A stretch of 13,554 bases of DNA, from assembly GCF_006345805.1 (NCBI RefSeq), contig NW_021826125.1, forward strand, positions 1 to 13,554, in the 5' to 3' direction. This stretch comes from Octopus sinensis (lineage: Eukaryota). Of the stretch, positions 1-13,554 are shown piece after piece (position 1 is the stretch's first letter; the number at the start of each line of letters is the position of its first letter). The translations under genes were made by a program, and so were the position numbers. The notes under the pieces are model-generated. The model saw only the letters and a list, made by a program, of their open reading frames with translations, had not been told where the DNA came from and did not search any database.

Positions 1-2252
1 CACTACTGACTTGGTCACAAGATAACGGAAGTATCAATTACTTCTAGCTTTTTCCCCCTGGAAGTGACGGAAGTTGTGTTCTGCAGATTTTCAGAGGTAA
101 TGCTCCCGAGCATCTGCCACATACAAAAACCACTTCCTAGTTAGCCTTCCTATGACATTGCTGCACCTCTTATGTGTCCATAGCTTACACTTGGTGCATC
201 TTATAGAGTTTCTACCTAACCTTTTCTACAGATCGAGCAGGGCCATCTACCTGAAGGCGTTTGTGATTTGTCTACCTTCCTACTTATTACGACTTTGGTT
301 TTAGCTAGGTTGACTCTAAGGCCTTCGATTCTAAACCATGCTTCCACACCTGAAACTTCTTCTCCAGTTCTGATAATGACTCAGCAATTAGAGCAAGGTC
401 ATCAGCATAGAGAAGCTCCCAGGGGCATCCTGTCTTGAATTCCTCCGTTATTGCCTGGAGGACTATGATAAATAGGAGGGGGCTGAGGACTGAGCCTTGG
501 TGGACCCCTACCTCTACCGGAATTCTTCACTCTACTCATTTCCAACCTCACCTTACTAGCAGCGTCCCTGTACATGGCTTGCACAGCTCTCACTAACCAT
601 TCTTCTATTCCTAGTTTCCTCATTGACCACCATATGAGGGATCGGGGGACCCTGTCGAAGGCTTTCTCCATGTCAACAAAAGCCAGGTACAGGGCCTTAT
701 CTTTGGCTAGGTATTTCTCCTGCAGCTGCCTTACCAGGAATATAGCATCAGTGGTACTTTTCCCTGGCACGAAACCCAACTGCATCTCATCTAAACTAAC
801 TCTCTCTCTAATTAGTTGGCTTATGACCCTCTCTGTAACCTTCATCACCTGATCCAACAGCTTGATACCCTGTAATTATTTGTATCTAGGGCATCACCTT
901 TACCTTTGTAGCAGTTGACTATTATGCTGCTACACCAGTCATTGGGTATGTCTCCTTCATGTATCACCTGATTAACTATACAGGTGACTAGGCTATAGCC
1001 GACACTACCAGATATTTTGAGCATCTCTGCAGTGATACCTGATGGGCCTGGGGCTTTCCCGTCTTCATGCTTCTAATTGCCTTAGCTACTAAGGAACTAT
1101 CAACCCTGATAGCTGGTCCCTCTGTTGGGTCAACGTTCGGCAGACTCTCTTTATCCCATTCATTTTCTTTATTCAGCAACCTTTCATAGTGGCATCTCCA
1201 AGCCTCTCTCTTTGCATCCTCGTTTAGCGCAAGTGAACCATCTTCCATGCGAACACACTTCTCTCCCACCACATCACAATTCTCTCTCACACACTGTCTT
1301 GCAACGCGAAACACCTCCAGTCTTTTGGTCCTCACGGCGCAGAACATTGGCAAAAAGTTTCTCTCTGCTTCCCCTCTGGCTAGATAGACCTGTCTCCTAG
1401 CTTCCCTTTTAGCAGTCTGATACAATTCCCTGCTACCACCATTCTTCCAGTGCTTCCAAGTCTGTCTCTTTTCTCTAATAGTCCTGTCTACGACACTGTT
1501 CCACCCCACGTTACTTGGGACGAGAGGGGACTTTGTACCAGCCACAGATCTGGTCAGTGGCTCTCAGCAGGTGTCCCTTAGAAACGTCCAGTTGTCCTCT
1601 AGCCCATGTGATACACTATCCCCTTCTACTTCGTCAAAGGCTTCAAGTAACATGTCTCTAAATCTCTGTCCATTCACAGGATCCTTAAGCTTCCAGATCC
1701 TTCTTCTCCATGTTGGTCGTCTTCTGGTTGTCCTCCTACTCCTGATCCTAAAGTCACTAACTACCAGTCTGTTTGTGGGGTGCATTCTTCGCCTGGGAAT
1801 GTTTTGGCATTTATAAGTAGCCATGTCTCCCTTTGCCTGGCAAGGATGTAGTCAATTTGGCTGGTATGTGTGGCCCGATCGGGGGTGACTAGGTGGCTGG
1901 TAGGTTTCCTGAAGTTAGTGTTGCAAATCATAAGATTATTTGCATCGCAGAACTCCAGCAGCCTGGTTCCCTCCTCGTTGCGGGAACCAGAGCCATAGCC
2001 TCCATGTACGCCGTGGAAGCCCCCAGCATGTCGTCCAACGTGACCATTGAAGTCACCAGCCACAAAGAGAAGGTCTCTGTCGTTCGTCAACGAGGTAGTC
2101 TGCAGTAGAGTGTCATAGAATCGGTCTTTCTGTCCATCAGGTAGCCCCGACTGAGGAGCATAGGCTGATATAATTGTTGCTAAACTATGATGAAGCGCTA
2201 ATCTAATCTTAAGTATTCTGTCGCATACTCTGATTACCTCAATTACTTTATC
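1..2252 (-). mobile_element. RTE-clade non-LTR retrotransposon (LINE), 5'-truncated within the endonuclease; 3' part continues beyond window start
   Basis: Minus-strand translation across frameshifts gives APE motifs (IISAYAPQSG, VAGDFNGHVG, GSRNEEGTRLLEFC, SQIDYIL) and RT motifs (QLGFVPGKSTTDAIF, AFVDMEKAFDRVPR, GVHQGSVLSP, LLYADDL with YADD at 409-398, GLRVNLAKTK). Coding signal starts abruptly at 2252 (DKVIEVIRVCDR) next to a (TA)n tract. Confidence 0.93.
1..2252 (-). pseudogene. Frameshifted APE endonuclease-reverse transcriptase ORF of the RTE element
   Basis: ORF-track fragments 1761..2090, 1564..1824, 988..1545 and 402..857 are consecutive pieces of one APE-RT protein. It extends by hand through the RT palm and a Cys/His finger to FRYL(G)D near position 15-30. 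Confidence 0.88.
110..239 (-). other. PHD-type (Cys4-His-Cys3) zinc-finger coding segment inside the RTE RT domain
   Basis: With two 1-nt frame corrections it reads CSICRKG(V)GRNSIRCTKCKLWTHKRCSNVIGRLTRK(x)VFVCGRC, lying between the KTK and FRYLG motifs. Confidence 0.8.
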
Positions 2253-2403
2253 TATATATATATTATATATATATATATATTTCTATATATATATTTATAT
2301 ATTTATATATATATTATATTATATATATATTATTTAATATATATATATATTTAATATATATATTATATTATATATTTATATATATATTTATATATATATA
2401 TTT
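2253..2403. repeat. Degenerate (TA)n microsatellite
   Basis: Near-pure TA alternation with occasional TT slips. Confidence 0.97.
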
Positions 2404-4054
2404 AAGACCCGGCAAGACTAGTCAGGTCATAACCCGTGGGCCCTACCTGGGACGTAGTCAGTCCACCTGTACATACCTTCCTTCTTGTGACACTTGTGAA
2501 GACCTGCTGAGGCAAGTGAAAATCAAATCAAATCAAAACAAATCAAAATAGATGAACATCAATGAATTTGTATCCTGTGGTACCAGTGCCGGTGGCACAC
2601 AAGAATCCATCCGAACGTGGCCGTCGTCAGTACCGCTTGTGGTACCAGTGCCGGGGCACACAAGAATCCATCCGAACGTGGCCGTAGTCAGTACCGCTTG
2701 TGGTACCAGTGCCGGTGGCACACAAGAATCCATCCGAACGTGGCCGTAGTCAGTACCGCTTGTCGGTACCAGTGCCGGTGGCACACAAGAATCCATCCGA
2801 ACGTGGCCGTAGTCAGTACCGCATCACTCGCCATCGTGCTGTGGGCACATAACAAACACCATCCGGTCGTGGCCGTTCGCTAGCCTCATCTAGCACCTGT
2901 GTCGGTGGCACATAAAAAGTAGTCAGTACCGCTTGTGGTACCAGTGCCGGTGGCACACAAGAATCCATCCGAACATGGCCGTAGTCAGTACCGCATCACC
3001 GGCCATCGTGCTGTGGGCACATAAAAAAACACCATCCGGTCGTGGCCGTTCGCCAGCCTCATCTAGCACCTGTGTCGTGGCACATAAAAACACCTTCCGA
3101 AGACCCGGCAAGAATGGCAGGCCATAAACCATGGCCCCTACCTGGGACGTAGTCAGTCCACCTGTGCAAACCTTCCTCCTTGTGATACTTGTGAAGGCCT
3201 GTTGAGGCAAGTGAAAATCAAAATCAAATCAAATCAAAACAAATCAAAATAGATGAACATCAATGGAATTTGTATCTTTGTGGTACCAGTGCCTGTGGCA
3301 CACAAGAGAAAACCATCCGAAAGTGGCCGTAGCCAGTACCGCATCAACTGGCCTCCGTGCTGTGGGTACATGACAAACACCATCCGATCGTGGCCGTTCG
3401 CCAGCCTCATCTAGCACCTGTGTCGGTGGCACATAAAAAACACCATCCGAAGACCCAGCAAGACTAGTCAGGCCATACCCATGGCCCCTACCTGGGACGT
3501 AGTCAGTCCACCTGTGCATACCTTCCTTCTTGTGACACTTGTGAAGACCTGTTGAGGCAAGTGAAAATCAAATCAAAACAAATCAAAATAGATGAACATC
3601 AATGGAATCTGTATCTTTGTGGTACCAGTGCCGGTGGCACACAAGAGAACCATCCGAACGTGGCCGTAGCCAGTTCCGCATCGACCGGCCTCCGTGCTGT
3701 GGGCACGTAACAAACACCATCCGATCATGGCCGTTCGCCAGCCTCATCTGGCACCTGTGTCGGTGGCACATAGAAACACCTTCCGAAGACCCGGCAAGAC
3801 TAGTCAGTCCACCTGTGCATACCTTCCTTCTTGTGACACTTGTGAAGACCGGTTGAGGCAAGTGAAAATCAAATCAAATCAAAATAGACAAAATAGATGA
3901 ACATCAATGGAATTTGTATCCTGTGGTACCAGTGCCTGTGGCACACAAGAAATCCATCAGTGCCGTAGTCAGTGCGGTGGGCACATGACAAACACCATCC
4001 GATCGTGGCCGTTCACCAGCCTCATCTAGCACCTGTGTCGGTGGCACATAAAAA
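2404..4054 (+). repeat. Higher-order tandem repeat of 4 large units starting at 2404, 3100, 3450 and 3786
   Basis: Each unit starts AAGACCC(G/A)GCAAGA and contains CACTTGTGAAG...GAGGCAAGTG, an (AAATC)n tract and GATGAACATCAATG, followed by ~62-bp monomers. Units 2 and 3 are 350 and 336 bp; unit 1 is internally expanded; unit 4 has deletions. Confidence 0.93.
2576..2822 (+). repeat. Tandem repeat, 4 x ~62 bp (TGTGGTACCAGTGCCGGTGGCACACAAGAATCCATCCGAACGTGGCCGTAGTCAGTACCGCT)
   Basis: Near-identical units start at 2576, 2638, 2699 and 2761. Confidence 0.95.
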
Positions 4055-4242
4055 CACCATCCGAGCGTGGCCGTCTGCCAGCCTCGTCTGGCACCTGTGT
4101 CGGTGGCACATAAAAAACACCATCCGAGCGTGGCCGTCTGCCAGCCTCGTCTGGCACCTGTGTCGGTGGCACATAAAAAACACCATCCGAGCGTGGCCGT
4201 TTGCCAGCCTTCTCTGGCACCTGTGTCGGTGGCACATAAAAT
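3993..4242 (+). repeat. Tandem repeat, 4 x 62-63 bp (CACCATCCGAGCGTGGCCGTCTGCCAGCCTCGTCTGGCACCTGTGTCGGTGGCACATAAAAA)
   Basis: Units start at 3993, 4055, 4118 and 4181. Confidence 0.95.
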
Positions 4243-4391
4243 CACCCACTACACTCTCGGAGTGGTTGGCGTTAGGAAGGGCATCCAGCTGTAGAAACAC
4301 TGCCAGATCTGACTGGACTGGTGCAGCTTTCGGGCTCCCCAGACCCCAGTTGAACCGTCCAACCCATGCTAGCATGGAAAGCGGACGTTAA

Positions 4392-4417
4392 ATGATGATG
4401 ATGATGATGATGATGAT
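4392..4417 (+). repeat. (ATG)n microsatellite tail of SINE copy A
   Basis: Eight ATG triplets; they create the artefactual poly-Met start of ORF 4392..5339. Confidence 0.95.
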
Positions 4418-4430
4418 ATTTATAACAAGA

Positions 4431-7299
4431 ATGGAAAAAGTAAGCATTGAGTTCTCCCCTAAAGACATCCCCTTACATAGTATAGATGAATATAATTGGC
4501 TTCTCATTCATAGGATTAACGATTTCATTAGAAGAATCAGGTGGAAAACGTACCATTTTGATGTCAAACAGAAGAAGAAACCACAGGAAAAGAATACCGA
4601 AAAGAATTTTAGAAGAATTTTTAAAAGTAGAAAAAGTCCACCTCAGAACCCATTCCTGGAGAACTTTGAGAAAGACTTGCTGAATCTTATAGATGATATT
4701 AGCTTCAAGGAACACCCGTTAAGATATAACCCTCACCTTAGACACCTTAGGAACTTTATTCAGTCAACCCGGTGCAAACATGGAATCCTAGTACCAGCAG
4801 ATAAAACGGGTAATATGTATAGAGTTGATTACGATATTTATAGCAAATTAATTAGGAAGGAACTAAACTCCAAATATAAAATTACGACTAAGAACAATTT
4901 GAAAAAAGTAAACCTGGAGATGAAAGAGATCATGGAGAAACTAAATTTAACGGATAGAACAGAGCCACTTAAACCGTGTGAGCCCAGGATCAACCTTAAA
5001 GACCACAAAAAGAATTTCTTGGAAAACCCTTCGGTAAGGCTGATCTGTCCAACTAAGTCGGACATTGGCCGACTTAGTAAATCTATCCTGGATACTGTTC
5101 TACCCCAAATAACCCCTCTTCTCCCCTTAAACCTATGGCTAAGTACGGACGAAGTTCTAAAATGGTTTAACTCTCTAACTAATACTAGTAGTCTGTCCTT
5201 TATTCAGTTCGATATTAATAGTTATTACTCTAGTATTTCCCCTATCTTACTCAACAAATCACTAATATTTGCCATGAATCGCTCCCTCATATCTAGAGAA
5301 GAAATCAATATTGTGCTACTAGCTAGGAAGACATTATAGAATTTGAAGATAATTATGGACTAGAGCAGATACACCTAATTATTTTGATATACCAATGGGT
5401 TCCAGTGATTCGGCTGAGGTAACCAACCTAGTAGGCGCATATCTATTAAAATGCATAAGCAAGGATATCCCAGAAATACAGGGGGGTCTATATAGGGATG
5501 ATGCTCTGTTTGTTATCCCTAGTAATAATAAATCTGTTATAGAAAGGATTAGAAAGAAAATTAATCAGTTCTTTAAGGATTCACCTCAGTATAACGTATG
5601 AACCGGGCACTAAAATAGTTAACTTCCTAGATATTACGCTAGACCTTAACTCCAAGCTGCATTACCCATTTAGAAGGAAGGCGAAATCATGAATTACGTA
5701 AATAAATTATCAAATCATCCCCCAAATATAATTGAATCTTTAGTAAGAAATATTTCATTAAGAATTTCAAAATTATCATCCAATAAGGATATATTTAACT
5801 CCCATTCTGAGCATTATAATGCGGCGTTAACTAAGGCTGGATACAACCAAAAGATTACATTCGTTGATAAGGAGAACTCACGTATTCCTAATGAAGAAGT
5901 TATCAGTAATCACGTAAGCAGCAATACAGACCAAGCCCGGAATAAAAGTAGAATTAAATTAACGGTAAACGCTAATCTAACGTACAGGCCCAACAATTCA
6001 AATAGAAGCATTGACCAGAACATAGGTAACTCGGATAATATCGAAGTAGATAAACCTAAGATGCACACAAATATAAATAAAAATAATGGTAATAAATACA
6101 ATAACTCCGGCGAGATGAATAGTAATAATTCTACGAACCCTAAATTTAATAAAAAAGATATATTATGGCTGAATATTCCTTTCAACTGTGCGATACAATC
6201 GGATATACAGAACAAATTCAAAGTAATTCTGGAAAAAAATTTCCCTATCTCTCATAGATATCATAGAATTATTTCTAGGAAAACAGTTAGGATTTCTTAT
6301 TCAACCCTCCCAAATATGTCCACTTTAATAGCTAAGATTAATAATAACAACAATAATAACAACTAGCCAGGAAAGATAGAAATAAAAATAATAATATCAG
6401 CATGAATACCAATAGCAATTATAATAATACTACCAACAATAAAAACAGCAATAGTAACTATCAAAACATAGGTGAAATTAGTAACCACAGAAAGACTAAT
6501 AACATTAACATTAATAGTAATAATAACAATGCCGATATTAATAGAAGTAATAATGTTAATAATAGAAATAATAGAAATAAGGCTAATGGAGAAAATAAGG
6601 AGAATGAAAATATCAGTGATATCTATAACAACAATATGCAGTCGGATAAAAAGACTAACAATAATAGTAGCATTACCATAATATAAGAAATCATGGTAGG
6701 ACTTTAGACCTAAATGATGAAACAGAAGGATCAATAAATAATAGCAATACTTTAGATATCAGCACCAACTATAGAAATATTAATAACAATAAGGACAATT
6801 ATACTCATGATAATCAAAATAATAGGAACCTAAGACATCTACCCAAAATAATCCAAAACCTGAAGTTGTTCCTCCTGTGTGTAAGTGTAGAATAAAATCA
6901 AAATGCCCGGCACCTGGTCTATGCGGAGAAAATAATGTAATCTATAAATGTACCATATCCACGGAGAATAACAAATATTTTTACATTGGATGTACAATTA
7001 ATTTTCTAGCCAGAGTTAGAAATCACATCTCGTCTTTTAAATTACGTCATAAAGCTGGTACCACCACACTTTCAAACAAAATCTGGGAACTCAAATAATA
7101 ATAATAATTATAACCTTAATTGGGAAATAGTTAGGAGAGCAATTCCGTATAAAATAGTAGGGTTGGTTGCCAACTATGCTCCATGGAAACGTATGAAATT
7201 CTAAAGCACAGTAAACATAGAAAATTATTGAATAACCATATCGAACTAGGTCAAGTTTGTGTCCACGCTAAATTGAAGACTTTAAAATATTTTAAATGA
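4431..7299 (+). pseudogene. PLE reverse transcriptase-GIY-YIG endonuclease polyprotein, frameshifted in this sequence but possibly intact
   Basis: Motifs in order: FIRRIRWKTYHF, PADKTGNMY, NLKDHKKNF...VRLICP, FIQFDINSYYSSI, FDIPMGSSDSAEV, GGLYRDDAL (YRDD 5491-5502), VNFLDITLDL, YVNKLSNHPP, WLNIPF, ISYSTLPNM, CKCRIKSKCP..GLC, VIY..YIG, CQLC, LLN..CVH. Stop TGA at 7297-7299. Confidence 0.93.
6877..7299 (+). other. Cys-rich linker and GIY-YIG endonuclease domain of the PLE
   Basis: CKCRIKSKCPAPGLCGENNVIYKCTISTENNKYFYIGCTINFLARVRNHISSF; after frame correction WEIVRRAIPY...GCQLCSMETYEI...LLNNHIELGQVCVH. Confidence 0.9.
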
Positions 7300-8039
7300 T
7301 TAGAATATTCGTAACTAGATAGATAGATAGATATAACTTGATTTTTACTAGTATAGCACTGCTTTAAGTAGATAACTAAGAGTTCTCACGCTACAGTTAT
7401 CTTTTTCCTTATATCTGCATCAGTTTTTTGAGATCAGGGAAATAAATAGTACTTATACGCTGCTTAATTGAGGCTTTATTTAATTTCAAACTCATATTTT
7501 AAATCTTAATTTTAAATCTTAATTGTAATTTTTAATTTTAATTCTTAACTTAATCTAATTAAGTAGCATAACTTTAATAAAATAAAATGAGTACTAAAGC
7601 CCCATAATTCTATTTCAAAATTAATAAATAAGGCTACTACTCCTCGGTGATAATATGATTATCTTCATTATGATAGACAATTCCCTAACACCTTGTAAAA
7701 GATCTTCTAAGATTTGACCTGTAGTCCGTCAATGTATGAATAATAACGGCAACTCCTTAAGACAACAAAAATGAATAAATGAAATAAATAAATTTTAATG
7801 ACTTTTTGATAAGATTATACTTAGATTTTCCTAATGTATTTTCTTTTGATTTTAGCCTCTGACTCCTAAACCCCTGACCGTGTTATCTCTTTAGATTCTC
7901 TTTAAATTCATAGCTGATTTCAACAGCAATAAATTAGCTGTTTTACTGGTCAAAGAATAATATTCTCCTCTAGTTCCTAGATGCCTGTAAATTAAAACCA
8001 CTTGACTTGCCGGCTACTAATTCTTCTGTATAACTAGAA

Positions 8040-8232
8040 CCCTCTTTTTTTTTTCTTTTTTTTCCCTTCTTTCCCTATTTCTTTCTTTTTCTCTTTTTTC
8101 TTTTTCTTCTTATTCTCTTTTTCCTTTTCTCTTCTCTTTTAGTCCCCCTCCCCCCCCCTTTTTGCTCCCTCCTCCTTTATTTTCTCTCTTTTCTTTTCTT
8201 TCTTCCCTTCCTTTTCTGTTCTTTGCATCTCT
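8040..8232 (+). repeat. Polypyrimidine (T/C) low-complexity tract
   Basis: About 190 nt made almost entirely of T and C runs. Confidence 0.9.
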
Positions 8233-8326
8233 AGTAAGCCCTTCAGCCTTTAAAAGTTAAATAGCTACAGCCTCTTGTAAATAGCAGTAATGTGATTAAT
8301 GTGGCAAATACCTAATCATATAACAA

Positions 8327-8615
8327 GAATTGATACCTACCTCATTGTGTTCAACCACTGATAAATTTATCGCCTGTGAATATGAAATTCCTCTTCATTT
8401 CTCTGGAAATTTACATCTACACCATTGGAAATTGTGCATCTATACAAAGGATTAATTCACCCTCTCTGTAATGCTAATAAGCAGGAATTGAGACCCACCT
8501 CGTTGTGATTAACAATGGATAAATTTGTCGTCTGTGAGTATGTAATCCCTCCTCATATCTCTGGAAATTCATATGTGCACTATGGATTAGGTCACCTTCT
8601 CTGTGATGCTATTAA
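8327..8615 (+). repeat. Diverged tandem duplication (8327-8480 and 8485-8615)
   Basis: GAATTGATACCTACCTCATTGTG..GATAAATTT..CTCTGGAAATT..CTCTGTAATGCTAATAA aligns with GAATTGAGACCCACCTCGTTGTG..GATAAATTT..CTCTGGAAATT..CTCTGTGATGCTATTAA; copy 2 is ~23 nt shorter. Confidence 0.88.
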
Positions 8616-8759
8616 AACTTTTTTTAAATTCTGTGATAAGACTGTACATCATCTTTAAAGAACTTTAATGAACTTTGGAAATCTGTTATGTTACTAATTA
8701 TCTACATTACTTCATGAGTATAGCCTCAACCACTAGGATGTCTAGAGAACTCACATGTA

Positions 8760-8850
8760 TTTTAGCTGATGAGTACGGGACACGTTTATATGCTGTAATT
8801 TTTGCAACATTTAATAAAGCCTGTCCTTGTATGAAACGATTGTACTAAAA
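8760..8850 (+). ncRNA. Type I hammerhead ribozyme, predicted cleavage after GUA at 8844
   Basis: Stem I TTTTAG (8760-8765) / CTAAAA (8845-8850); core CTGATGA (8766-8772); stem II GTACGGGACA (8773-8782) / TGTCCTTGTAT (8822-8832) with a further inner helix; GAAA (8833-8836); minimal stem III AC-GATT-GT; cleavage triplet GTA (8842-8844). Confidence 0.87.
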
Positions 8851-8877
8851 ACCTATCCATTCTTGTTGCTTCTTTCT
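8813..8877 (+). terminator. Putative polyadenylation signal AATAAA (8813-8818) with downstream U/GU-rich element (8860-8877)
   Basis: Canonical hexamer followed ~40 nt later by TTCTTGTTGCTTCTTTCT at the element's 3' end. The AT-rich background lowers specificity. Confidence 0.45.
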
Positions 8878-8882
8878 CACTT

Positions 8883-8962
8883 ATATTTATACATATATAT
8901 ATATTTATATATATATATTTATATATATATATTTATATATATATTTATATATATATATTTAT
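8883..8962. repeat. (TA)n microsatellite
   Basis: Seen directly in the sequence. Confidence 0.95.
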
Positions 8963-9153
8963 ATCATCATCATCATCATCATCGTTTAGCGTCCGTTTTC
9001 CATGCTAGCATGGGTTGGACGGGTCAACTGGGGTCTGTGAAGCTGGAAGGCTTCGTCAGGCCCAGTCAGATCTGGCAGTGTTTCTACGGCTGGATGCCCT
9101 TCCTAACGCCAACCACTCCGCGAGTGTAGTGGGGGTTTTTTACGTGCCCCTGC
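8963..9153 (-). mobile_element. 5'-truncated SINE copy B, inverted, diverged variant of copies A and C
   Basis: Reverse complement reads GGCACGTAAAAAACCCCCACTACACTCGCGGAGTGGTTGGCGTTAGGAAGGGCATCCAGCCG...CCATGCTAGCATGGAAAACGGACGCTAAAC(GAT)n. The central ~30 nt differ from A and C. Confidence 0.9.
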
Positions 9154-9273
9154 TATATATATATATGTATATATATTTATATATTATATTTAATATATTA
9201 TTTATATATTATATTTAATAGAATATATATATATATATCTATATTATATTTATATATATATAATATATATATT

Positions 9274-9310
<37 letters not shown>

Positions 9311-9340
9311 ATTCATATTTATATCTATTATATATATATT

Positions 9341-9371
<31 letters not shown>

Positions 9372-9372
9372 C

Positions 9373-9404
<32 letters not shown>

Positions 9405-9445
9405 ATATATATATTATTATATTTATATATATATATATATTTATT
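9154..9445. repeat. Degenerate (TA)n microsatellite
   Basis: Seen directly in the sequence. Confidence 0.96.
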
Positions 9446-9885
9446 ACCATCCGAGCGTGGCCGTCTGCCAGCCTCGTCTGGCACCTGTGTCGGTGGCACA
9501 TAAAAACACCATCCGAGCGTGGCCGTCTGCCAGCCTCGTCTGGCACCTGTGTCGGTGGCACATAAAAAACACCATCCGAGCGTGGCCGTCTGCCAGCCTC
9601 GTCGTGGCACCTGTGTCGGTGGCACATAAAAAACACCATCCGAGCGTGGCCGTTTGCCAGCCTCGTCTGGCACCTGTGTCGGTGGCACATAAAATCACCC
9701 ACTACACTCTCGGAGTGGTTGGCGTTATGGAAGGGCATCCAGCTGTAGAAACACTGCCAGATCTGACTGGACTGGTGCAGCTTTCGGGCTCCCCAGACCC
9801 CAGTTGAACCGTCCACCCATGCTAGCATGGAAAGCGGACGTTAAATGATGATGATGATGATATGATGATGAATATATGATGATGA

Positions 9886-9886
<1 letters not shown>
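9446..9886 (+). mobile_element. SINE copy C: 4 x ~62-bp monomers, tail and degenerate (ATG)n; nearly identical to the 3' part of copy A
   Basis: Monomers start at 9446, 9507, 9570 and 9634. The tail at 9696-9844 matches 4243-4391 apart from a few indels. Confidence 0.92.
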
Positions 9887-9946
<60 letters not shown>

Positions 9947-10061
9947 TAATATAATATATATATTTATATATATGTATATATATATATATTTATATATATG
10001 TATATATATATATATTTATATATATATATTATATTTTATATATTGTATATATATATATATT

Positions 10062-10092
<31 letters not shown>

Positions 10093-10204
10093 ATTTATAT
10101 ATATTATATATATGTATATATAGTATATATATATATCTATATATATATTGTAATTATATATATATATTTATATATATTTATATATATATATATTTATATA
10201 TATT

Positions 10205-10237
<33 letters not shown>

Positions 10238-10330
10238 ATATATTTATATATTGTATATATATATATATCTATATATATATATATCTATATACATATAATA
10301 TATATATTTATATATATATATATATATATA
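9887..10330. repeat. Long degenerate (TA)n microsatellite
   Basis: About 440 nt of TA alternation. Confidence 0.97.
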
Positions 10331-13300
10331 CTTTTTTACTCTTTTACTTGTTTCAGCCATCCGCTGAGGCCATGCTGGGGCACCGCCCTTGTTGCTACCC
10401 TCTCTAAGTCCAGTTGCCGTGGCTGGCCACTGATCTAAGAGAGAGTTTGTAGCTGCTGCCCCTAGGTTACCTACCCTTAGTGCGGTACCTTGCAGTGGGT
10501 TCATCTGGGATCCCGGAAAGCAGCTTGTCTAGATGTTTTTTGAAAATGTCCACATCCGCATCATGTAGATCTCTTAGTTTTCTTGGCAGTTTGTTGAAAA
10601 GCTGAGGCCCCTGAACCCCAGGCTATTACAGTATCTGCTCCTTACCCTGGATGTGGAAGACGGGACCTTTGGCACCACACAGTGACGTCCTGTACGGGGA
10701 TTGGAACAGCTCTCAATTCCAAAATTTGGTGTTAGTCCCTCCAGGATTTTCCATATGTATATCACTGCATATCTCTCTCGTCTTCGTTCCAAGGAGTACA
10801 AATTGAGTTCCCTAAGCCTCTCCCAATAGTTCTTTTCTTTCATGGTGGAAATCCTCTTGGTGAAATGTCTTTGGATTGTCTCAAGCTCTGTGGTTAGTTT
10901 GACACTATGCGGTGACCACAGTTGGGAGCAGTAGTTCAGGCGGCTTAGGACAAATGTCCTCCATAGTGTCAACATGGTCTCGCCGTCTCTTGTCCGGAAT
11001 GTCCTCAGGATCCAGCCATGAGTCGTCTGCACATTGTCGCCACCTTCGCGATGTGTGAAGAAAAGATGCATCGTCACTCATGTCTATCCCCAGGTCCCGT
11101 ATTGATTTCGATACTGGGATTTCGATCCCTCCTGGACCAGTATAGTTGTGTTGTAATGTATATGTGTTTACAGCTTGATATTGTAAGGCTTGAAATTTAC
11201 CAGCATTAAATTGCATGTTGTTGTCTTCAGCCCATTTGTATATGGCATCCAGATCTTGTTGTAAAAGGTCAGCATCAGCTGGGTTTTTGATTGCCTGTGC
11301 TACCTTTGTGTCATCAGCATAGCTAGTGAGGGATGTTGTTTGTGCTACCAAGGGCATGTCAGAGAGCGCCACCAAAAACAGCAAGGTCCAAGACTGTGCC
11401 CTGTGGGACCCCGCTTGCTATTGGTGTTCTTTCCCGAGAGGGCTCCATTGGCTGCAACCATCTGGCTTCTGTCCTTCAGGAAGTCATGTATCCACTCACC
11501 TACTTTTCCTGTTATGCCGAGTCTGAGTAATTTGTGACATATCACTCCGTGGTCGACTTTGTCAAAGGCCTTCGCAAAGTCGAGATATACCACATCCACC
11601 TGTGAGCGATCCAGTAGTTGTTCAGTACCCAGTCGTAGTGTTGTAACAGCTGCGTAAGGCAGCTTCTTCCTGGCGAAAGCCATGCTGTGTGTCAGTGAGA
11701 CGGTTAGTTTCTTCGAGGAACGTGATCAGTTTTTTTCTGATGATTCGTTCCATGACCTTACTTATGTGTGACGTCAGGGAGACTGGCCTGTAGTTTTTGG
11801 CCTCTGCTCTACTCCCTCTTTGTGGATAGGCATATGGTGCCTTCTTTTAGCGCCCTGGGCAGTTTACCGTTAGCCAAGGAACCACTGAAGAGCTTCTTCA
11901 GTGGTCCCGCTAGGGCATGCCTGCATGCTTTTAGGAGGACTGCTGGGAATCCATCTGGTCCAGCAGCTGAGTTTATTCTCATTTCTTCTATGGCAGATAT
12001 TACATCCTCTCTGTTATGTCTATGTGGTCGATGGTTGTTGTTTGGTTTTGGAGTGTTGTGGCATCAAGAAAAACTTCTGGGTTTGTGATTTGCATGTGCC
12101 CCAGAGGGGATGTGAACACACTTTTATACTGTTCCTTTAGTATTTCACTTATCCCTTGGGGGTCCTCAGTTTGAGAGCCCTTTTTATCAAAGAGTGAGCC
12201 AATCTTGCAGTGTACCGAGGTGGTTTCTTTCGCAAATTTAAAGAAGGCTTTAGGGTTTGTTTTAATATTCTCTATGGCCCTGGCTTCTCTCTCTGCCCTC
12301 TCCTTCTCATAGGAAAGTTTGAGTGCAGTTTCCGTTTCAGAAAGTTTCAGGTGGAGTCCCTCATTGTTTCTCTGCCATGCATTCAGTTGCTTCGAGAGCT
12401 TAGCTCTTCACCTCATAAGTATTTTCCTGTCTCTGGGAATAACGTTCCTATGCCCGCTGGCTTTTTTCTCCGGGACAAACTTATGGCATATGTTCTGTAT
12501 TGTTGTCATGAAATGTTGGAAATGTGTGTTGGTGTCTTGTGTGGTGATGAAGTCACTCCAGTCATGTTTTCGGATCTCTTCGTTGATCTTCTTCCAGTTT
12601 GCCTTATGGAAGTTTAGACTGGATAGACCTGTGGTATTTTCTAATGGCTGCGTCTCAACTAACTTTCTCATACCATATATCATTACCTCTACTAAGTTGT
12701 GATCTGAGAGAATTGTTGGTGTTACCATTATGTTGTGGATGAGCATCGGGTTGCTTGTGAAACAAGGTCCAAGACATTCTCACCTCTGTTGGCCGAAGCA
12801 CTGCTTGCTCCATGAAAAACTTGCGTGTGAGAGCCAACAAGGACTCTGTCTGTCTCTGTTCAAGTGATGTCATTCCAGGGAGGAGATGCCATCTGGCCAT
12901 TTGACTTTCGGAAGGTTAAAATCTCCCAGCAGTAGAATGGTGTTACCCTGGTCCAGTTTGTCCAGACTTCTTCTATTCTTCTGAGGCTATCTTCAAACAC
13001 TCCTTCATGACTAGGGGTGTCTGGTGGCCGATATGTGACACATATTACTATTTTCGGTTGTTTCATATGTACTATCATGGTGTCACAGACTGAGTTTGAG
13101 TGTGTCAACAGTACTATGGGTGTGACATCTTCACGGACGTACAGGGCAACCCCACCATGAGTTCTTTCCTTCCTGTCTGACCGAAAAACAGTATACTTTG
13201 GTACGTGTATTTCTGCATCTGCTATACTGCTTGACAGGTGCGTTTCAGTCAGCGCTATGCATATTGCATGGTTGCTTGTGCTTAAGTCCCTAAGGTAAGG

Positions 13301-13423
13301 AATTTTACTCATATTAGTGGGTTTCACCAGACCTCTGACATTCAGCAGAAGCACTGGTGAGATATTTGGGGTGTTAATAAAGGCTGACAGTGTGGCACCT
13401 GGGCTGGTGTCAGCGGTGGCCAT
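10331..13423 (-). pseudogene. LINE ORF2 (APE endonuclease and reverse transcriptase), frameshifted
   Basis: LLLNVRGL, IALTETHL, FRSDR..HGGVALYV, YRPP, LSDHN, AAGPDG, YRPVSLTSHISKVMERII, QHGF, VVYLDFAKAFDKVDH, PQGTVL, SYADDTK (YADD 11321-11310), RDLGI, SLERRRERY, NSLLDQ. The position of the stop codon is uncertain. Confidence 0.92.
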
Positions 13424-13554
13424 CCTGGGTCCCTTGATTGTGGTGGTCTTGAGTGCTGTTGTGAGTGCCCCTGGCTCTGAAGACGATGTATCCAGGCCAG
13501 TTGTCCCACAATTTTCTCTGCTATTTCCACAAAATTTCTTTGTTCTGCTGCCGC
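13342..13554 (-). CDS. Possible C-terminus of LINE ORF1 (partial), overlapping the ORF2 start
   Basis: Frame is open from the window edge (AAAEQRNFVEIAEKIVGQL...Q/P-rich) to the stop at 13342 and overlaps the putative ORF2 ATG at 13423 by 82 nt. No diagnostic motif. Confidence 0.45.
   Translation of the reverse strand, partial: AAAEQRNFVEIAEKIVGQLAWIHRLQSQGHSQQHSRPPQSRDPGWPPLTPAQVPHCQPLLTPQISHQCFC

Follow-up and report, generated by a model that had tools for sequence, protein, structure and literature searches.

A conserved type I hammerhead with a long stem II in the pseudo-LTR of a Hydra-type Penelope-like element of Octopus sinensis, and its candidate dimeric fold

A conserved type I hammerhead ribozyme motif was located in the pseudo-LTR (pLTR) of a Hydra-type Penelope-like element (PLE) in a stretch of 13,554 nucleotides from Octopus sinensis (assembly GCF_006345805.1, contig NW_021826125.1, positions 1 to 13,554 of the forward strand; hereafter, the window). 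On balance, sequence comparison and folding models favor the account that this ribozyme is slow and cuts only as a double hammerhead, and that the RNA that is reverse-transcribed is still uncut. According to this account, the pLTR-ORF-pLTR transcript would bear two ribozymes, the palindromic stem III strands of the two would pair into a shared 8-bp helix, and cleavage, probably with help from the protein of the element, would then reduce the transcript to a single unit. At (TA)n, the RT/endonuclease would make a nick, and the cDNA would start at two internal leader sites and read back over the intact ribozyme, giving a short end and a tail end, respectively.

The motif lies at 8760-8850 on the forward strand, and its parts are listed together with those of the element in Table 1. 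All features given in an initial annotation of this DNA, including the type I core, the 6-bp stem I and the stem II of about 60 nt with its G·U closing pair, were found as placed. The core (CUGANGA, GAAA and UH) and three helices round it, backed by covariation and with an open stem I, are those of a type I hammerhead. The motif had also been likened to minimal type I hammerheads, but here a stem III is present. With both strands scanned, a relaxed type I descriptor gave a single match in the window; in shuffled windows this descriptor matched 3 of 300 and an equally strict descriptor 0 of 300. An Rfam scan of the whole window gave no match at E<=1. Scoring with a hammerhead model, which the annotation had proposed as a check, gave a divided answer: using RF00163 (Hammerhead_1) on a 156-nt stretch, model positions 1-45 of 45 were aligned at exactly 8760-8850 with all core positions and three stems, and the score of 18.4 bits (E 0.038) was below the gathering score of 34, the stem II stretch being 54 nt in the window versus 8 in the model. 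Since the long-stem-II form falls below the Rfam threshold, such ribozymes are probably undercounted.

Table 1. Features of the Penelope-like element and its hammerhead in the window (positions of the window)
Feature	Positions	Strand	Basis or remark
Hydra-type PLE copy, 5'-truncated just before ATG	4424..8881	+	copy matches begin at 4424 and end at 8878-8881
RT and GIY-YIG ORF, broken	4431..7299	+	three-frame translation; several frameshifts/stops; Asn-rich stretches between RT and endonuclease
3' UTR / pseudo-LTR	7300..8759	+	95-98% alignment of ~7100-8881 in ten copies; also upstream of ORF in full copies
Polypyrimidine tract in pseudo-LTR	about 8040-8225	+	
Internal 79% duplication in pseudo-LTR	8324-8425 / 8482-8583	+	
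Stem I, 5' strand	8760..8765	+	6 bp with 8845-8850; 3/6 pairs vary on both sides
Catalytic core CUGAUGA	8766..8772	+	all 17 representatives agree save at position 7
Long stem II, 60 nt	8773..8832	+	G8773·U8832 closing; apical hairpin 8793-8807
Core GAA	8833..8835	+	alignment of representatives
Stem III octamer ACGAUUGU, self-complementary	8836..8843	+	2 bp in monomer; 8 bp in double hammerhead
A17; predicted cleavage 8844/8845	8844	+	hammerhead consensus, RF00163 alignment
Stem I, 3' strand	8845..8850	+	partner of 8760-8765
Leader start up to first insertion end (inferred first RT start)	8851..8881	+	
(TA)n-like microsatellite target	8882..8964	+	TA runs after most copies

Conservation was examined with a genome pattern in which the stem II interior and the stem III loop were left free; it gave 3,976 matches and the reversed control 0, these counts referring to related copies and not to independent events. 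The first copies were near-identical and without covariation, and diverged subfamilies were added. Seventeen hand-picked subfamily representatives were aligned as the covariation set, from which two loci of the mismatched-octamer list were omitted in that orientation. The hammerhead structure was paired in 95.4% of 323 stem cells, compared with 27-49% in slid-structure controls, and 8 of the 19 stem pairs varied on both sides; the shuffle count of the covariation test is not to be read as a probability. The core was invariant among the representatives save at position 7. Stem covariation and core conservation among genomic copies, two points by which the annotation was to be judged, were both borne out, and the motif was linked to thousands of other copies of this PLE. 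Judging from these patterns of change, the hammerhead motif is real and under selection; self-cleavage at 8844/8845 is predicted from the model.

Pair 10.1-11.1 was always paired in the 17 representatives, of which 7 have G-C, 6 have A-U and 4 have G·U, and the window, having G·U, lacks the canonical G10.1-C11.1. G·U also occurs at this pair in the published Penelope-13_HM and Penelope-17_HM (PMC8557442, File S2). The closing pair that had been singled out in the window is no special trait and, in the alignment, is one state of a covarying pair. Stem II was 57-60 nt long in 17/17 representatives, with folding z from -0.8 to -5.2 and below -2.5 in 13 of them; the predicted fold of the window's stem II domain had -14.1 kcal/mol and z -2.0. 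More distant lineages (12 of 30 examined: L211, L212, L214, L217, L220, L223, L226, L232, L234, L235, L237 and L238) have a stem II of 46-56 nt, A-U at the stem I base and other leaders.

By its ORF motifs, (TA)n insertion and hammerhead, the element is a Hydra-clade PLE. RWK and DKT were found in the RT of the window and of copies L078, L063 and L064, and the C-terminal GIY-YIG domain has a CxCx5C linker, no CCHH, and CxxC/CxH round the conserved E and N; RWK, DKT, CxCx5C, CxxC/CxH and the lack of CCHH are traits of the Hydra clade (PMC8557442), and insertion into (TA)n together with a hammerhead also agrees with this clade. The unit of 4,531-4,630 nt exceeds the Hydra-clade length (<3 kb), which is descriptive rather than defining. 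The window ORF was matched by RVT_1 (E 0.027) and by GIY-YIG (E 3.8e-4), neither of which reached the Pfam cut-off. Copy L078 has a natural open frame of 947 aa with RWK, DKT, YRDD, the CxCx5C linker CKCRIKSKC, CxxC as CQLC and CxH as CVH, and no CCHH was found by eye in this frame. A match to GLTP, the sole Pfam result on the full 947-aa frame, was judged spurious. In the protein homolog search, 32 proteins were obtained, 31 of them unnamed proteins at 32-39% identity. The nearest named protein (68% over 42% of the query region) was an Octopus sinensis gene model called ankyrin-repeat protein (P0013), which contains the 68%-identical piece of the PLE RT region and appears to be either a fused annotation or an exonised insertion. 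Long Asn-rich variable inserts of the ORF were observed between RT and endonuclease at 5900-6850; comparable inserts are described in passages of PMC3846280 for Adineta vaga Penelopes.

A DNA search with the 3' region of the element gave 1,084 candidates, and the 40 scored were 99-100% identical. The hammerhead core was present in 30/30 fetched loci, and ~7100-8881 was aligned at 95-98% in 10 of the 30 (L005, L014, L016, L018, L021-L023, L025, L026 and L028). The 1.55 kb after the stop codon (7297-7299; 1,551 nt before 8850) is part of the element, as the annotation had held. Its placing of the ribozyme at the end of the PLE was partly right: the ribozyme is in the terminal repeat, but the element continues past it to 8880/8881, and in other copies the leader runs on for ~118 nt (the tail) or to the ATG. 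Among 29 loci with an ORF start, some of them duplicates of one place, 23 had the same ribozyme before the ATG, at a distance of 207-210 nt in 22 of them and of 359 nt in the other. Hammerheads are present in both pLTRs flanking the ORF, as in dimer-type PLE hammerheads; the cut-to-cut unit is 4,630 nt in L079, with ribozymes at both ends, and 4,531 nt in L200, and the upstream pLTR of full copies varies in length between about 130 nt and over 1,300 nt. The window copy, without an upstream pLTR and with one hammerhead only, is broken and probably a dead product.

Some further features were observed around these copies. Copy L079 has another, short hammerhead-like motif on its minus strand at 7157-7199, ~640 nt past the PLE 3' end; its stem III octamer is identical. 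In the window, LINE endonuclease/RT-like frame fragments lie on the minus strand at 402-2090 and 10574-13552, and SINE-like and 62-63 nt tandem GC-rich repeats flank the element at 2500-4417 and 8965-9850. These flanking repeats finish in (ATG)n or (CAT)n, and one of them adjoins the truncated PLE 5' end.

The ends of insertions were compared with the predicted cut site. In 115 distinct contexts, a sample biased to copies with sequence beyond the cut, 48 3' ends entered (TA)n at +34 to +40 and 42 at +148 to +160, 20 continued to the ORF and 5 were other; none stopped before +28. A direct search for 3' ends at the cut gave 76 matches without C after the cut, and with 0 of 30 examined ending there such ends were rejected. 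A pile-up of 5' ends at the cut was also rejected, 12 breaks being found among 24 matches (mutated copy L133 excluded) versus about 8-10 when scaled at control sites (4 of 30 examined from 63 matches, and 9 of 30 examined from 32 matches). Seven head-to-head inverted pairs, of which two are represented twice, could be followed over their full length; each combines an arm that has the short end with an arm that has the tail, and both insertion ends are at TA-like patches of the leader. Since the genomic ends are ~37 or ~155 nt past the cut and none of those examined is at it, the copied RNA would keep an intact cut site. The proposal of the annotation that transcripts are processed into monomers, if these are what is copied, conflicts with the cut site kept in the copies, the ends downstream of it and the lack of any 5'-break excess.

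At the short end, the base next to (TA)n is G instead of the T of the template in about 61 of about 88 junctions (window 8879-8885), and most tail ends likewise finish in G before (TA)n; this G may reflect a target preference or a first C added to the cDNA without a template. In most subfamilies the leader has two hairpins and, immediately after the first insertion end, the motif AATCACCC (L044:1299-1510), which recall the AC-rich stem-loop at the anole RT start.

An intact cut site would also be expected if both ribozymes cleaved, the 4.6-kb unit were ligated into a circle, and leader-primed RT crossed the re-formed ribozyme to give more-than-unit copies, a model proposed in passages of PMC4209133. 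Such circularisation, which accounts for both the intact cut sites and the variable length of the upstream pLTR, is a real possibility but not a probable one, since tandem-copy read-through also accounts for the pattern, a circle and a genomic tandem yield identical junctions, and unprocessed RNA is given in passages of PMC11167929 as the main in vitro substrate of the anole PLE. Genomic ends are alike for an uncut precursor and a re-ligated circle; from sequence and analogy, the uncut tandem transcript is favored over the re-ligated circle as the template with an intact cut site. Circles are further brought to mind by a neighboring array of ~474-nt hammerhead repeats with PLE-like ends (L208), which resembles retrozymes, described as making circular RNAs in passages of PMC7229834. 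This array, seen at L208:2600-7400 (G000:C3, about 165,087,600-165,092,400) and also in L073, consists of about ten tandem units of 474 nt and has an inverted terminal copy and TA flanks; every unit bears a short type I hammerhead in which stem II and stem III have 4 bp each. Rfam gave no hammerhead match in the L208 array at E<=10. From its layout, it looks like a non-LTR retrozyme mobilised by a PLE.

Stem III was confirmed to have 2 bp and a self-complementary octamer, the basis on which a dimeric fold had been suggested. Octamers were typed in the 3,976 matches for three types, the other 1,459 matches being outside the count by type: ACGATCGT (G-C) occurred in 1,325 and ACGATTGT (G·U) in 1,170, and the mismatched ACAATCGT (A·C) in 22 only, and this retention of self-complementarity supports the double-hammerhead fold. 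Among 100 matches listed, 98 octamers were self-complementary by eye, and those without G were nearly all ACAATTGT; by chance, 36 of 256 loops would be self-complementary. The short palindromic helix III of dimer-type PLE hammerheads is present, and the octamer self-duplex is predicted to have 8 bp and -5.8 kcal/mol. In the monomer, a loop of 2 nt would be closed by the covarying 3:6 pair, which would be an ordinary pair in the double hammerhead.

A tree was built from 34 rows of ribozyme and leader with the octamer excluded (maximum 2 rows per stem II start and octamer, midpoint root). G-C octamers were found in three separate lineages, two of them nested among A-U lineages on starred branches and the third sister to an A-U lineage. 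This suggests that A-U changed to G-C in at least two lineages, depending on the root, with the window's G·U family as an apparent intermediate. Since ACGATCGT has CpG sites at its varying positions 3 and 6, decay of methyl-C could be behind part of the octamer pattern.

For the free monomer, the hammerhead was not the predicted fold (z -0.88), and the active fold of the window was 3.7 kcal/mol above the MFE; free folding and RNAalifold yielded a competing hairpin, in which the stem II end and 3' core are paired with the cut site. Using an artificial 30-nt linker in place of the real 4.6 kb, the double hammerhead was predicted to beat two single ones by 7-12 kcal/mol in 16/17 representatives and was the free MFE in 6/17. 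The window's own version of the double hammerhead was 4.7 kcal/mol above the free tandem MFE because the competing hairpin joins the 3' core to the cut site. The dimeric fold is favored by octamer covariation and predicted energy taken together. An ordinary monomeric ribozyme, with an incidental palindrome and with a long stem II that serves to stabilise the core or to dock on an extended stem I, would suit a stem II that is long, conserved and stable (z < -2.5 in 13/17) and the several subfamilies in which only 1.2-1.4 kcal/mol separate the monomer hammerhead from the MFE. It is considered improbable: the monomer would have a stem III of 2 bp only, self-complementarity of the loop is kept through compensatory change, and predictions for 14 copies did not agree on a stem I extension.

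Retention of the fold through hitchhiking or for a function other than catalysis (in protein binding, as a promoter, in translation or in RT positioning), with rare cleavage in vivo, would agree with the absence of genomic ends at the cut and with passages of Craig et al. (PMC8557442) in which Naiad PLEs thrive without canonical hammerheads and hammerheads may simply parasitise PLEs, but is very improbable, as the catalytic nucleotides are all invariant while stems and flanks diverge, which is expected under selection for catalysis.

The slow hammerhead that cuts only as a dimer, with uncut RNA as the copied template, remains the preferred account. A bolder reading is doubtful as a whole: the repeated compensatory change at a pair formed only between copies would be natural evidence of obligate dimers in vivo, and the pLTR ribozymes, 4.6 kb apart or on two transcripts, would form an AND-gate that cuts complete tandem transcripts only; the unit RNA would circularise and template more-than-unit insertions, and the 60-nt stem II would be a protein docking arm that licenses cleavage.

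Hammerheads in PLE repeats, the dimer model, Hydra-clade hammerheads and the tail mechanism are already published; new are the stem II of 46-60 nt, the tail of ~118 nt and natural covariation for the dimer pairing. Neither this family nor a Hydra element with a stem II of 46-60 nt was found described in the literature searched, which did not include Repbase, Dfam or subscription papers; similar variants may be catalogued there. For the role of the ribozyme in the PLE life cycle, this family of about 4,000 copies in many subfamilies offers a ready-made allelic series (A-U, G·U, G-C and rare A·C) at a pair predicted for the dimer only. Its insertion ends carry the model of two internal starts from anole Poseidon over to the Hydra clade, where the tail is much longer.

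Among known systems, the closest are the hammerheads of Hydra-clade PLEs (Craig et al. 2021, PMC8557442, File S2), with which the octopus motif shares its type, its place near the 3' end of a PLE with a C-terminal endonuclease, RWK, DKT, CxCx5C and (TA)n insertion, and in which pairs other than G-C occur at the base of stem II too. The Hydra hammerheads listed there have a stem II of ~12-24 nt, whereas that of the octopus element is 46-60 nt (up to about 50 nt is reached in the PLE-X hammerheads of spike-moss in the same file), and the listed consensus lengths are 1.1-3.0 kb, compared with a unit of 4.5-4.6 kb. Hydra-1_Obim of Octopus bimaculoides differs in the sequence of both its hammerhead and its ORF start, and the O. 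sinensis element is therefore another family.

The metazoan PLE dimer hammerheads, as described in passages of Cervera & de la Pena 2014 (PMC4209133), share one hammerhead per pLTR, the dimer model, a very short palindromic helix III and an enlarged helix II, and are reported there to be dependent on dimers and of low activity; Lunse et al., as cited in a passage of the review PMC6765202, also treat metazoan PLE hammerheads as acting as dimers. Compared with those in PMC4209133, the octopus motif is not stem III-less, has neither a bulged base between 9 and 10.1 nor a fixed G10.1-C11.1, and has a helix II far longer than 7-8 bp; it also differs from metazoan PLE hammerheads as they appear in these passages in that natural compensatory change at the dimer pair is seen between its subfamilies.

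Poseidon of Anolis carolinensis is described in passages of Frangieh et al. 2024 (PMC11167929) as starting RT at two internal sites, which define the tail; its hammerhead cuts only with the protein present, hammerhead core mutants still insert, and no RNA-seq reads begin or finish at the cut. Set against those passages, the octopus element shares two inferred internal RT starts downstream of the hammerhead cut, an optional tail, AT-rich targets and a motif near the start site (AC-rich in Poseidon, the conserved AATCACCC in the octopus element). The tail of the octopus element measures about 118 nt and belongs to the 5' leader, whereas that of Poseidon measures 30-40 nt and belongs to the ORF. 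Both octopus ends coincide with TA-like patches of the RNA; the anole start site has no homology to its target.
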